From Candidatus Heimdallarchaeota archaeon (GTDB lineage Archaea; Asgardarchaeota; Heimdallarchaeia; JABLTI01): a stretch of DNA of 31,334 nt. The position numbers and the translations under genes were made by a program. This document shows positions 491 through 4,132 of this stretch, piece by piece. The stretch's first letter is position 1. Each line of letters starts with the position of its first letter. The notes below the pieces were generated by a model. The model worked only from the letters and a program-made list of their open reading frames with translations. It did no database searches and had not been told where the DNA came from. The stretch is from assembly GCA_030614005.1 (NCBI GenBank), contig JAUWKS010000038.1, forward strand, positions 1-31,334, read 5' to 3'.

Positions 491-3400
491 ATGGTAAATA
501 AAAACATTGGAAACCATCGCAAGATAATTTTCTTTTCAATAGGGATAGTTGCTCTGTTCTGCTTTTCTATTTATAATCAAAGCCATCAAAGTGATTTTGT
601 TATCCTAAAAAGTACTATCAGAGAAACGAAAACAACATTAGAACAACCATTCATTACAACTCCAATAAGTACAAAATCTATTGGCTTTTTCTCCGAGGAA
701 ATTGGGCAATTTGACATTAATTTTGGGCTGGTACATGATGTTGTTGTAGAAGATGGATTTGCTTACCTAGCAAATGATGGAGAAGGAGGTTTTCTAATAG
801 TTAATGTAAGTAATCCAGATTCACCAAGTTTTGTAAGTCAACTATATGGCGAAATAGGTGCCTTAAACTTAGCTGTAGATGGTGAATATGCTTATCTTGG
901 TTGTAAAGATTTTGATTTAAAGATCATTGATGTCACTGATAAAGAAAACCCACTAGAAGTCAGTTACTTAAATTTAGATGGATATACAACCAGTATAACC
1001 AAAGTCAACAATTATCTTTATGTAACTCTCAATAGTGATGGTTTGAGGATCATTGATGTCACTGATAAAGAAAACCCACAACTTGTAGGTATTTATAATG
1101 ACGGCGGAGCATCAAATGGGGTAACTATAGATGGAGATTTTGCTTTATTAGCAAATGGTGCTGGTGGTTTAGTTATTCTTAATATCACTGACAAAACGGA
1201 TCCACAATTTTTGAAATTATTTAGTACTGGAGAACACGTGTGTAGTTCAGACGTCCAAGATAATTTTGCCTTCGTAGTATTTCTTGATATTGGTTTAGTG
1301 ATCTATAACATAACAAATGACTATTCCTTTGTCAAAATTGGAGAGTTTACCGAATCAGAAACACTCACAAATGTTAAGGTGGTCGAGAACTATGCGTACG
1401 TAACTTCTTGGGAGGATGGTTTGTACATTGTTAATATTACTGACAAAAAAGATCCAGTCCATGTTGGGAAGTTTGATGATGGTGGATTTATAACTGCTCT
1501 TGATGTAGTGGGGAATTTTACTTATTTAGCGGATGTGAGGGAAGGCTTAGAGCTTGTAGACATCTCTGATAAAACAAACCCTTTTGAGCTAAGCGAATTT
1601 TCTAATGGAGGAGATGCACTAGGAGTAGCTGTAGCAGGTGATATTACTTACTTAGCTAATGATGGTGACGGTTTAATTGTTATTAACTCAAGTGATAAAC
1701 TGAATCCTTATGGTATAGGAAGATTTTCTGGTGATTTTAGTGTAGCAGCAGTTAGTATAGAAGGAAATTTCGCATACCTTAGTTGTTGGAATGATGGTTT
1801 CAAAATAGTTAATATTACTAATAGTTCAAGCCTTGAGCAAATAGGATCCTATAATGGTGGAGAATTTGTATACAATGTCGCTGTAATTGGTAATTACGCT
1901 TTCATTGCTAATGGTTTGCATGGTCTTGAAATCTTGAATATTACCGATAAAACCAATCCATCAAAGATTGCACAATTATATGATGGTGGGTTTGCGTTAG
2001 ACATATGCATTGTTGGTGATTATGCATTTGTAGCTGATGCTTATGATGGATTAGAAATCATTGATATCTCAAATATAAAAAGTCCAAATAAAGTAGGTCA
2101 ATGGAATACTACTTCCACGTATACTACATGTGTAGAAGTGGTTGGAGATTATGCTTTTCTCGGTGATATTGGAGGTGAGGGATTTGTAATAGTTGATGTT
2201 ACGGATAAAACAAATCCACAGAGTGTAAGTTCTATCTCTGAGATTTTAAATTGTAATGATATAGCAATTAATGGAGATTATGTATACGCCGCAGCCTTTT
2301 CAGAGGGGTTAATTAGTATAAATGCTTCTGATGTAACAAATCCATTTATTATCGGAGCAATCTTTGACGGAGGATTAGCATATGGAGTTACAATAAGTAG
2401 CAATCTTACCTTCGTTGCAGATAGTAATGATGGATTAGAGATTATCGATTTTGACACGGACAGTGATTCTTTATCGGATTATTATGAGATAGAAATTTAT
2501 GGAACAGATCCAAATTTAGCAGATTCTGATTTTGACGGAATTGATGACTATGATGAGCTTTTCGTTTACGAAACCGATCCAACAGATTACGATTCTGATG
2601 ATGACTTGCTCTCTGATGGAGAAGAGGTTACGTTAGGGAATGATGGATACATTACAAACCCATTAAATGCTGATACAGACTGGGATGGACTTCCTGATGG
2701 GGACGAGGTTACAATATACTTTACTAATCCTACTGTTTCAGATGTTGATCTCGATTCCGATGGAGACGACTTAACGAATGTTGAAGAAGTAGATGTCTAT
2801 GGAACAGATCCAAATGACAATGATACAGATGGAGATACCATCTTAGATGGAGAAGAAGTGATAACAGGAACAGATGGATACATCACCAATCCATTAAACA
2901 ATGATACAGATGGAGATGAACTCCTCGATGGGGATGAGCTTACAAAATATTTTACTGATCCTACTGTTTCAGATGCTGATCTCGATTCCGATGGAGACGA
3001 CTTAACGAATGTTGAAGAAGTAGATGTCTATGAAACTGATCCAAATGACCAAGATTCCGATGATGATCTTCTCAGTGATTGGGAAGAGGTTAATGAAGGG
3101 CTTGACGGTTACGAAACTGATCCCAATAATGCTGACACAGATGGAGATAGTTACTCAGACGGTGCAGAAGCTGCTGCAGGAACCAATCCTCTTGATCCCA
3201 ATGATTTTCCACGATCATTTCCCGTTTGGGCTTGGGGAGTTATTGGTGGAGCAGTGATATTCTTACTAACCCTTTTTGTTTTAATAGCTGTTAACAAGAA
3301 TCTCAAATCCGAGAAAAGCTTCGAAAGAAGAAGATTACGAAAAGAAGAACGTTTAACTCGAAGACAAGCAGCTGCTGATGCTAAGCATGCACAACAAGAA

Positions 3401-4132
3401 ACAATAGCAAGTGCTGAAACTGCTGAACCATATGTTGCTTCAAGAGAAGTTTTAGATGTAGATAATCAAACAGAATATTTAACTAATCTCTTAAAATTAC
3501 AAACACTTATGATTATCAGTAAAGATGGCATTCCACTTGTTCACATGGATTTCGCTAATGAAATTGACTCCACATTAACTTCAGGCTTCCTAACAGCAAT
3601 AACGAGTTTTAACCGAGAATTACTTGGAACAGGGCAATCTTCCAAGAAAAGCTTTAATCAAATAGGTCAAGATGAAGCTATTTTCTGGATATTTGGTAGT
3701 GAATTCAGTACTTTAGCACTCTTATTTGAAAGCGAACCTCCTAATAAATTCAAGAAACCCCTACGGACCTTTTTGAATGAATTTGAAAGCGTCTATTACA
3801 AAGAAATCAAAAGTTTTTCCGGTCGTACTGATGTTTTCAAAAATGCAAATGAGTTGCTTGAGCGATTTTTAAAGGTACAATATCTTTATCCAATGAGGAT
3901 TAACAGAACGAAAATCGATGATAACATTTACAATGAAGTGTTCTTGATCAAACTCCTACGTAAACACAATGAGGATTTTGATGTAGAAGTAACTTTAGAT
4001 GTACATCAATTAATCTTTGAATCCTTTAAAGAATTAAAGACTTTGACCTACGATAAAATCTTGCAACAAATAATCTTCTTTCTCGAAGAGGAAGTTCTTC
4101 TTCCACAATCCATTCAATTACTCCCAGTGTAA
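491..4132 (+). CDS. Single-pass surface protein: signal peptide, 14 LVIVD repeats, DxDxDG Ca-binding repeats, TM helix, cytoplasmic longin/roadblock-like domain
   Basis: Basic and hydrophobic N-terminus; 14 ~42-aa repeats (e.g. GDYAFVADAYDGLEIIDISN); D-T/S-D-x-D-G-L-x-D-x-x-E...T-D/N-P repeats; TM VWAWGVIGGAVIFLLTLFVLIAV followed by a basic stretch; C-terminal LMIISKDGIPLV...LTSGFLTAITSFNREL longin-like motif. Confidence 0.85.
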   Translation: MVNKNIGNHRKIIFFSIGIVALFCFSIYNQSHQSDFVILKSTIRETKTTLEQPFITTPISTKSIGFFSEEIGQFDINFGLVHDVVVEDGFAYLANDGEGGFLIVNVSNPDSPSFVSQLYGEIGALNLAVDGEYAYLGCKDFDLKIIDVTDKENPLEVSYLNLDGYTTSITKVNNYLYVTLNSDGLRIIDVTDKENPQLVGIYNDGGASNGVTIDGDFALLANGAGGLVILNITDKTDPQFLKLFSTGEHVCSSDVQDNFAFVVFLDIGLVIYNITNDYSFVKIGEFTESETLTNVKVVENYAYVTSWEDGLYIVNITDKKDPVHVGKFDDGGFITALDVVGNFTYLADVREGLELVDISDKTNPFELSEFSNGGDALGVAVAGDITYLANDGDGLIVINSSDKLNPYGIGRFSGDFSVAAVSIEGNFAYLSCWNDGFKIVNITNSSSLEQIGSYNGGEFVYNVAVIGNYAFIANGLHGLEILNITDKTNPSKIAQLYDGGFALDICIVGDYAFVADAYDGLEIIDISNIKSPNKVGQWNTTSTYTTCVEVVGDYAFLGDIGGEGFVIVDVTDKTNPQSVSSISEILNCNDIAINGDYVYAAAFSEGLISINASDVTNPFIIGAIFDGGLAYGVTISSNLTFVADSNDGLEIIDFDTDSDSLSDYYEIEIYGTDPNLADSDFDGIDDYDELFVYETDPTDYDSDDDLLSDGEEVTLGNDGYITNPLNADTDWDGLPDGDEVTIYFTNPTVSDVDLDSDGDDLTNVEEVDVYGTDPNDNDTDGDTILDGEEVITGTDGYITNPLNNDTDGDELLDGDELTKYFTDPTVSDADLDSDGDDLTNVEEVDVYETDPNDQDSDDDLLSDWEEVNEGLDGYETDPNNADTDGDSYSDGAEAAAGTNPLDPNDFPRSFPVWAWGVIGGAVIFLLTLFVLIAVNKNLKSEKSFERRRLRKEERLTRRQAAADAKHAQQETIASAETAEPYVASREVLDVDNQTEYLTNLLKLQTLMIISKDGIPLVHMDFANEIDSTLTSGFLTAITSFNRELLGTGQSSKKSFNQIGQDEAIFWIFGSEFSTLALLFESEPPNKFKKPLRTFLNEFESVYYKEIKSFSGRTDVFKNANELLERFLKVQYLYPMRINRTKIDDNIYNEVFLIKLLRKHNEDFDVEVTLDVHQLIFESFKELKTLTYDKILQQIIFFLEEEVLLPQSIQLLPV
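922..1079 (+). repeat. Perfect 32-nt direct repeat within adjacent LVIVD blades
   Basis: gatcattgatgtcactgataaagaaaacccac at 922-953 and 1048-1079; offset 126 nt = 42 aa. Confidence 0.9.
2721..3049 (+). repeat. 231-nt period intragenic duplication in the Ca-binding region
   Basis: 2721-2818 vs 2952-3049 match at 94/98 nt. The same 231-nt offset holds upstream (gatggata at 2642 and 2873). Confidence 0.9.

Follow-up and report, generated by a model that had tools for sequence, protein, structure and literature searches.

A Heimdallarchaeal surface protein joining LVIVD repeats to a predicted cytoplasmic longin tail related to Rab-like GTPase fusions

The window, i.e. the whole analysed stretch of 31,334 nucleotides from Candidatus Heimdallarchaeota archaeon contig JAUWKS010000038.1, encodes in ORF 491-4132 a large surface protein, the features of which are given in Table 1. 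Just two hydrophobic stretches were detected in this ORF, one following a basic n-region (KD 1.88) and the other forming the single transmembrane (TM) helix (KD 2.78), which is succeeded by 12 K/R among 40 residues. Both the N-terminal signal and the TM helix, flanked by basic residues on its inner side, had been noticed in a first-pass annotation made from the sequence alone, and both were recovered here. Inside/outside topology was set by the positive-inside rule, which predicts the tail to lie inside the cell; the C-terminus is cytoplasmic regardless of whether aa 12-30 are cleaved off as a signal peptide or stay in place as a signal anchor. In all 102 of the 102 family members with a TM helix preceding the longin-winged-helix module, basic residues were more numerous after the TM helix than before it. 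An assembly chimera could be ruled out, since an independent assembly spans both the propeller-stalk junction and the region from the stalk through the TM helix and tail to the next gene.

Table 1. Features of the surface protein gene in the analysed window
Feature	Position (nt)	Strand	Description
Whole gene	491..4132	+	1213 aa; single-pass (type I-like) surface protein with cytoplasmic longin and winged-helix-like tail (P0001)
Signal peptide or signal anchor	491..580	+	basic n-region, then hydrophobic aa 12-30
14 LVIVD repeats	719..2455	+	aa 77-655; probably two 7-bladed beta-propellers, the 2x7 split being inferred
Acidic TSP3_bac-type repeat stalk	2456..3214	+	aa 656-908; predicted Ca-binding
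Single transmembrane helix	3236..3292	+	aa 916-934
Basic juxtamembrane flank and variable linker	3296..3466	+	aa 936-992; near-neutral evolution (dN 0.44, dS 0.45)
Longin domain	3467..3886	+	aa 993-1132; with one short additional N-terminal helix; GP motif and arginine finger absent
Winged-helix-like C-terminal domain	3887..4129	+	aa 1133-1213; net acidic; best Z 6.8

The ectodomain begins with exactly 14 tandem repeats of ~42 aa, without a gap or surplus repeat, as the first reading of the sequence had counted. They match the Pfam family LVIVD (PF08309) with E 8e-70 and 230 bits (cut-off 20.2); scores of a repeat HMM are not independent, because it was built from the same 14 repeats. The region probably folds into two 7-bladed propellers, as suggested by repeat regions of paralogues, spanning either ~290-310 aa or ~550-600 aa, and by weak Kelch-propeller matches. 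No signal of an internal 7+7 duplication was found among the blades. When tested as an integrin alpha, the ORF gave no FG-GAP or integrin match in Pfam, its repeats being LVIVD. Two paralogues carry FG-GAP blades.

The many N-x-S/T sequons noticed earlier amount to 17, 15 of them ahead of the TM helix. In the propeller region (aa 30-655) there are 12, against 6.5 expected (p 0.02), and eight of these fall at one repeat position; the two cytoplasmic sequons correspond to chance level. AglB/STT3 is encoded in the genome, and the ectodomain is probably N-glycosylated. The acidic stalk, likewise recognised at first pass, contains 86 D/E versus 2 K/R and eight DxDxDx[LIY]xD motifs. It matches TSP3_bac (PF18884) at 27.9 bits (cut-off 25) and is predicted to bind calcium; it also weakly resembles the repeats of Myxococcus CglD/MtsD. 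A Pfam match to Binary_toxB, below cut-off, was rejected as a sign of a toxin, as it reflects the Ca-repeat stalk.

The cytoplasmic module of 221 aa was modelled by AlphaFold with pLDDT 89 and pTM 0.84. The model has the beta-beta-alpha-beta-beta-beta-alpha-alpha topology with a C-terminal helix that defines a longin. Its best Foldseek match was Sec22b (E 9e-5), and a second structure search retrieved synbindin (Z 11.8, rmsd 3.0, 121 aligned residues), Sec22 (11.3), VAMP7 (11.2) and Loki longin 8yqg (10.8). Longin chains align with model residues 13-144, whereas roadblock chains, with Z up to 8.9 and thus below longins, align only as far as residue ~116-119; the model also has a short N-terminal helix. 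FLCN and C9orf72-SMCR8 chains match at Z 7.8-8.6. For the longin/roadblock-like domain proposed beforehand, the model and both structure searches confirm a longin fold. In eukaryotes, this fold serves to dock small GTPase switches. Many longins (SNARE, adaptor) bind no GTPase, however, which speaks against GTPase docking, and these are the top structural matches.

With aa 990-1213, no Pfam family was found at E up to 1, and NCBIfam gave no match to the tail. One relative matches Fuz_longin_1 at E 0.07, and Cas3_I-F_Cas2 matches in nine distant members (best E 0.002) were treated as noise. A first, shallower profile gave a weak match (E 0.025) that extended over the alpha2 helix of MglB; it was not recovered in a PDB sequence search with a deeper alignment. 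ESM Atlas feature searches with the whole protein and the C-terminal domain returned no usable match, and a complex prediction for two tail copies (alignment A3) scored 0.01 and was not counted as evidence.

In GAP longins, the arginine finger sits in the beta4-beta5 loop. In the tail, this turn comprises three residues (aa 1070-1072), and there is no Arg in aa 1043-1091. The GP motif of GAP longins (PMC12290439) is absent from the beta1-beta2 loop, which reads S-K-D-G-I-P (clade consensus G-x-P). Because both elements are lacking, the GAP-longin signature is missing, and the tail is predicted to be non-catalytic as a GAP.

The short C-terminal domain that had been noted behind the longin was modelled (pLDDT 80) as winged-helix-like, with Z under 8 throughout. 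Winged-helix chains among its matches (ORC2, MCM, cullin, Fur, MecI) reached Z 5-6.8, i.e. the range of common arrangements, and Foldseek found no match at E up to 0.001. Lantibiotic dehydratases and further enzymes of peptide maturation headed the winged-helix matches; in such enzymes, winged-helix elements serve to bind peptides. The structural matches listed for the tail and for the C-terminal domain do not include NPRL2. The C-terminal domain contains 9 K/R versus 14 D/E, and the helix at its end combines acidic with hydrophobic character.

Neighbouring genes are unrelated housekeeping genes, including PCMT and PolD DP2, and neither a GTPase nor a protease gene adjoins the ORF. A functional link to PCMT or PolD DP2 was rejected, because the block is conserved in nine other family genomes in which the ORF is missing from the syntenic locus. 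Promoter and terminator scans gave results at chance level, and no related loci were confirmed in genome contigs and metagenome contigs. The genome encodes about 25 LVIVD surface proteins, of which just two have the tail; about 20 ectodomain paralogues have almost none, and most LVIVD paralogues stop within 35 aa past the TM helix. Altogether, four intact tailed receptors are present, and paralogous tails are encoded on contigs C10, C64 and C73. Isolated tail fragments (G000 C10, G075 and G076) probably represent remnants. Within its family, the ORF has a patchy occurrence and was inserted recently.

The TM-longin-winged-helix architecture itself is common across the Asgard phylum: our survey found a large family of such proteins, as expected by the first-pass annotation, which had suspected similar unannotated architectures. 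No published description was found in a literature search, most subscription papers lying outside its reach. The best soluble matches to the tail were intact Rab-like GTPase fusions, namely P0007 (38% identity, E 4.5e-41), P0008 and P0017. In the tree, ten receptor tails and five Rab fusions formed one clade (support 99/97), the sister group of which is a soluble FG-GAP-propeller-longin-winged-helix protein (97/92) conserved in this genome (contig C71) and in 10 of 10 other genomes of the genus. An AU test covered the sequences other than P0048, P0129 and P0015, the tested group having been picked after seeing a tree. It is new that the tail sits in a lineage-specific clade whose sole non-receptor members are Rab-like GTPase fusions of sister genomes. 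New as well is the swapping of ectodomains on near-identical tails, since tails with 82% identity bear either a solute-binding-protein or an FG-GAP ectodomain.

Because these fusions are the closest soluble relatives of the tail, a kinship shown at sequence level, the putative GTPase link is genuinely, though indirectly, supported. The fusions of sister genomes were found as an adjacent paralogue pair, and the fused Rabs group together in a single, weakly supported clade (85/77), so that the fusion looks like one event. The longin-winged-helix module is also fused to HerA, FG-GAP, HEAT and PCI proteins. For both reasons, a Rosetta-stone argument carries little weight. A Rab fusion could be found neither in this genome, which is 90% complete, nor in 11 genomes of the family with 64-92% completeness. 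The genome encodes about 30 longin-like domains and at least 25 sequences related to Rab, including Rab-like GTPases at C62:4824-5414, C46:30057-30635 and C46:30844-31413, but a clear orthologue of the fused Rab was not found.

The tail is under purifying selection (dN/dS 0.13/0.55, about 0.24), whereas the adjoining 57-aa linker is near-neutral (0.44/0.45); among close paralogues, linker length varies between ~55 and ~110 aa. The 49 positions conserved across the clade include 13 of the 26 residues of alpha1 and beta3, compared with 36 of the remaining 195. In longins, the surface for dimerisation and GTPase contact is made up of alpha1 and beta3. Roadblock/longin dimers have been described as GTPase platforms, and no further than that (PMC10933270).

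We tentatively favour, with somewhat less than even confidence, an accessory glycoprotein of the adhesin type, which would act by clustering and whose non-catalytic tail would dock the Rab/longin machinery. A Ca-stalked surface adhesin or lectin-type protein would have acquired the conserved longin and winged-helix tail. For the propellers, a ligand on surfaces, cells or glycans might be envisaged, and the tail could use helix alpha1 and strand beta3 to pair with a second longin, supplied by the tail of a paralogue or by a soluble protein of the family. Paired longins would provide a platform docking a Rab-like GTPase, or the Rab-longin fusion in lineages having one. The output might then be local recruitment of GTPase machinery at protein clusters, rather than rigid transmission of a shape change or GAP catalysis by this chain. 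The original proposal, a receptor signalling to a GTPase system, is upheld in its architecture, topology and longin fold, and its GTPase link indirectly by the Rab-like fusions. Its signalling part stays putative, given the lack of GAP motifs, the neutral linker, the near-tailless paralogues, and the absence of an adjoining GTPase gene and of a detected Rab fusion in the genome.

Alternatively, the tail might be a GTPase-independent tag for sorting or clustering, which we regard as a less probable but serious possibility. It would bind longin-winged-helix proteins (e.g. the soluble FG-GAP-propeller protein) or peptide motifs, placing surface proteins in patches, protrusions or vesicles, and Rab fusions would merely borrow it. 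The soluble, genus-wide sister protein, the many unrelated fusion partners of the module, the adaptor and SNARE longins heading the structural matches and the peptide-maturation enzymes heading those of the winged helix all agree with such a tag; inside the clade, however, the sole non-receptor partner domain is an intact Rab. The strongest version of the first-pass reading, in which the tail acts on a small GTPase as a GEF or GAP that is switched by ligand binding to the propellers, appears improbable. The layout is receptor-like, the swapped ectodomains include a solute-binding-protein fold (P0002), and both the conserved tail and the Rab fusions would fit, but the missing GAP-longin signature bears against a GAP (not against a GEF), and a 250-aa acidic stalk and the neutral, length-variable linker separate the domains.

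A further possibility, that domain shuffling recently brought in the tail as a passenger of little function on what is just one of many LVIVD surface proteins, is largely disfavoured and in our view quite improbable. The early stops of most LVIVD paralogues, the empty syntenic locus in related genomes and the probable tail remnants would be expected from it, but the purifying selection next to a neutral linker, the four intact tailed receptors and the phylum-wide architecture would not. Least probable, and very much so, is a membrane-tethered regulator whose tail would be freed by proteolysis to let the winged helix bind DNA or RNA. Fold matches to Fur/PerR, MecI and SarX point in this direction; yet they are weak (Z under 7) and include winged-helix domains that do not bind DNA, the domain and its last helix are acidic, and no protease gene is nearby.

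To our knowledge, Asgard cells have only one membrane, and a longin tail on an integral membrane protein is one candidate means of bringing GTPase switches to chosen membrane spots. Asgard archaea possess dozens of small GTPases and longins, which are hard to match as they rarely occur in operons, and none of the proteins tested in the same study localised to membranes (PMC10933270). The tail and its Rab-like relatives hint, as far as sequences can tell, at a link between cell surface and GTPase switch, and the Rab fusions of the same clade offer a concrete pairing, testable with small soluble domains. The value of the single gene is limited, given its patchy occurrence and recent insertion within a large family and the putative nature of the GTPase interaction.

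As for known systems, the ectodomain repeats belong to those of LVIVD-repeat surface proteins (PF08309, PMC2447325) and TSP3_bac proteins (PF18884; Myxococcus CglD, MtsD). LVIVD paralogues of the same genome mostly end just past their C-terminal anchor, whereas ORF 491-4132 continues into a folded cytoplasmic module. With longins (TRAPPC4/synbindin 2zmv, Sec22b 1ifq/3egd, VAMP7 4afi, Lokiarchaeal Roadblock-Longin 8yqg), the modelled tail shares the five-stranded fold and C-terminal helix (Z 10.8-11.8) at 6-17% identity, and eukaryotic and Asgard longins are likewise cytoplasmic and membrane-proximal. In longin SNAREs, the longin is N-terminal to the SNARE motif and the anchor C-terminal. Unlike the longins listed above, the one described here follows a TM helix and an ectodomain of ~900 aa and precedes a winged-helix-like domain. 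GAP longins (NPRL2/NPRL3 of GATOR1, FLCN-FNIP, C9orf72-SMCR8) and Asgard 'NPRL2-like' longins (bioRxiv 10.1101/2020.10.19.343400) similarly combine a longin with a small C-terminal domain, but the tail has no GP motif, arginine finger or DENN domain. Lineage-specific, promiscuous longin fusions, apparently of the same kind as that of the tail module, are reported for Asgard archaea in that preprint; those named in its text involve two-component domains and GTPases, surface ectodomains not being among them.

By analogy, Ragulator-Rag, MglB-MglA and the Asgard GTPase-longin/roadblock fusions (PMC10933270) may share a working model with our protein, i.e. a longin/roadblock platform held at the membrane, on which a small GTPase docks. 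In contrast to these systems, the anchor here is itself an integral membrane protein and bears a large ectodomain. The GTPase of the fusions is Rab-like and its binding is putative, and the fusion was not found in this genome. The Rab-longin-winged-helix fusions of sister genomes have a Rag-like order, GTPase then longin. Although we consider it unlikely as a whole, it could be speculated that in this Heimdall lineage, and separately from the main pan-Asgard receptor family, a soluble longin-winged-helix module became attached to interchangeable surface ectodomains and to a Rab-like GTPase, giving rise to a matched prokaryotic system in which adhesins would recruit a Rab-like switch by longin-longin pairing in the manner of Ragulator-Rag.

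P0001, the product of the ORF at 491-4132, has two membrane-type stretches by hydropathy, at aa 12-30 and 916-934, and no others. From aa 77 to about 655 lie exactly 14 tandem LVIVD repeats of about 42 aa each (Pfam E 8e-70), the number counted in the first-pass annotation, and an arrangement as two 7-bladed propellers is likely, given that the repeat regions of paralogues span some 300 or some 580 aa. The acidic stalk described there was recovered at aa 656-908 (86 D/E, 2 K/R, TSP3_bac-type motifs), as was the single transmembrane (TM) helix with its basic inner flank. Since 12 K/R fall within the 40 residues after this helix, the positive-inside rule predicts that the C-terminal 279 aa are cytoplasmic, not outside the cell. 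The sequons, noted as many, number 17, of which 15 are on the outer side; the propeller region holds 12 where 6.5 are expected, a modest surplus (p 0.02), and eight share one repeat position. An AglB/STT3 gene is encoded in the genome. The propeller-stalk and stalk-TM-tail junctions of the gene were both spanned by contigs from an independent run. A contig from a different strain carries, before position ~2996 in the stalk, 177 bases that are additional or unmatched, which may represent repeat-number variation.

No Pfam family matched aa 990-1213. The AlphaFold2 model of the tail (aa 993-1213; pLDDT 89, pTM 0.84) shows a short helix, strands and helices in longin order, and then a domain of ~80 aa. 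The longin-like domain proposed from sequence was borne out by this model, by Foldseek (top match Sec22b, E 9e-5) and by an exhaustive structure search headed by synbindin (Z 11.8), Sec22 (11.3), VAMP7 (11.2) and a Lokiarchaeal longin (10.8). Longin alignments run through the C-terminal helix, whereas those of roadblocks (Z up to 8.9) end near model residue 116; the tail is a longin by fold and lies outside the GAP-longin family. The terminal winged-helix-like (wH) domain, modelled alone at pLDDT 80, matched many winged-helix domains, but at Z of only 5-6.8. In longin/roadblock pairs, alpha1 and beta3 form the dimer and GTPase face; in the tail, these elements are enriched in conserved positions (13/26 against 36/195 elsewhere), some being simply core residues.

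A search of 1.84 billion representatives returned 409 relatives of the tail module. Among the listed matches with at least 100 aa upstream of the module, 102 of 124 have a TM just ahead of it, so that similar architectures, which the first-pass annotation had only surmised, do occur in other Asgard genomes. All 102 have more basic residues on the tail side of the TM than on the other, and 77 have >400 aa ahead of the TM. Ig-like, LVIVD, FG-GAP, NHL, beta-helix and solute-binding folds were seen among scanned relatives. The structural neighbours are archaeal in every case, mostly Promethearchaeota. A module profile matched 140 of 151 Asgard-phylum genomes, a count including other Asgard longins that it also catches, often at full length in open frames >700 aa. 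No description of the TM-longin-wH architecture was found in the papers searched, and the family appears undescribed there; the preprint by Liu et al. (bioRxiv 10.1101/2020.10.19.343400) describes Asgard longins in general as having narrow, shuffled architectures.

Among the listed matches, the nearest soluble relatives of the tail are three Rab-like GTPase fusions of sister genomes, P0007 (38% identity, E 4.5e-41), P0008 and P0017, all with intact G motifs. Two paralogous Rab-longin-wH fusions lie tail to tail in each of two genomes. Each fusion gene in the table is followed by a similar gene of 118-122 aa, family unassigned and without a match in the window's genome. In an unrooted maximum-likelihood tree, ten receptor tails and five Rab fusions form one clade (99/97), sister to a soluble FG-GAP propeller protein (97/92). 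The latter is present in all genus genomes searched and is a candidate partner. Most Asgard receptors form a clade apart (100/99). A constraint uniting all receptors was moderately rejected (p-AU 0.032, on a quick tree with the group picked after the fact), so the receptor build probably has two or more origins, or soluble forms came from receptors repeatedly. Single-pass P0129 (1232 aa) has a tail that groups with soluble proteins of the HerA type and may represent yet another, third origin of the build. The branching order of Rab fusions and receptors has support of just 53/28. As the fused Rabs group in one weakly supported clade (85/77), the fusion may have been a single event. It was not found in the window's genome or in 11 family genomes searched, all incomplete, nor was a clear orthologue of any fused Rab found in the former. 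Other fusion partners of the module are HerA, HEAT, PCI and propeller proteins. A ~880-aa soluble module protein related to the HerA/DUF87-bearing P0011 is encoded in 20 of 22 genomes from a different family of the class; its gene lies tail to tail with that of a multi-pass membrane protein ending in a longin.

Positions of features in the window and at loci (L) outside it
Feature	Position	Strand	Remark
Insertion element end, multi-copy	1-340		remnant of a TnpB/OrfB-like zinc ribbon, judged by eye (ORF 25-324)
P0001 ORF	491-4132	+	1213 aa
Archaeal PolD DP2, large subunit	5027-9940	-	LAGLIDADG-containing intein, aa ~921-1381
Complex I/Mrp-like membrane subunit genes	10054-14704	-	
258-aa protein	24263-25039	-	no Pfam match
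Zinc-finger array + zincin peptidase	27852-29096	-	
Isolated tail-module fragments	L001:12796-13110, L043:1369-1734, L054:1026-1220		
Rab-longin-wH fusion genes	L056:3311-6428, L058:8001-11104, L057:8001-9753		
Soluble FG-GAP propeller + zinc ribbon + longin-wH protein	L004:4529-6709		G000 (window's genome) contig C71:76528-78708
~880-aa soluble module protein + multi-pass longin-ended protein	L045:4727-9996, L046:4260-9582, L047:3048-8327		

The genome (3.6 Mb, 90% complete; the window is its contig C87), probably that of a Heimdall-group Asgard archaeon, encodes ~30 longin-like domains along with 25 or more Rab-related sequences, and no GTPase gene lies near that of P0001. Only two of its ~25 LVIVD proteins carry the tail; most others stop within 35 aa past the TM. 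Ectodomains differ between tails 82% identical: one of the two proteins has a solute-binding ectodomain, the other an FG-GAP propeller. The P0001 gene lies upstream of PCMT-DP2 in this genome and G072 only, while nine other family genomes have the block without it. Tail-module fragments in three genomes are probably remnants of lost receptor genes. On contig C10 of the window's genome, a tail fragment is preceded by a duplicate of the gene before the intact C10 receptor. A ~340-aa epimerase-like gene directly upstream of PCMT in G072 and relatives is absent at 4133-4320. In one run, depth over the element at the window's start was 179, compared with 8, and many loose ends lay at 337-340; Pfam gave no match for its ORF. 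The P0001 gene occurs in sequencing runs of metagenomes from marine sediment and cold seeps.

Relative to the G072 orthologue, the tail is under selection (dN 0.13, dS 0.55) and the linker neutral (dN 0.44, dS 0.45); that the tail is a passenger domain seems highly improbable. The net charge of the wH-like domain is acidic and would therefore fit protein binding better than DNA binding; a released DNA-binding regulator is hardly credible. Since the acidic stalk is long and the linker neutral, clustering is favoured over rigid signal transmission, which speaks against a ligand-gated GEF/GAP receptor, an improbable reading. A GTPase-independent sorting tag is less far-fetched, though still unlikely.

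We tentatively prefer a reading in which P0001 would act as an accessory adhesin-type glycoprotein, its tail a non-catalytic docking platform pairing with another longin, and Rab-like machinery would be recruited where such proteins cluster. Of the receptor-to-GTPase reading in the first-pass annotation, architecture and longin fold stand, and selection on the tail and its phylogeny are shown as well; a ligand, dimer formation and GTPase binding we infer. New here are the kinship with Rab fusions, the tail tree, the ectodomain swaps, the rarity among LVIVD paralogues and the patchy locus occupancy. By itself the P0001 gene is one patchily distributed family member, and the Rab fusions offer a concrete means of testing the GTPase link of receptor tails. 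By analogy, the tail may work in like manner to a Ragulator-type platform.
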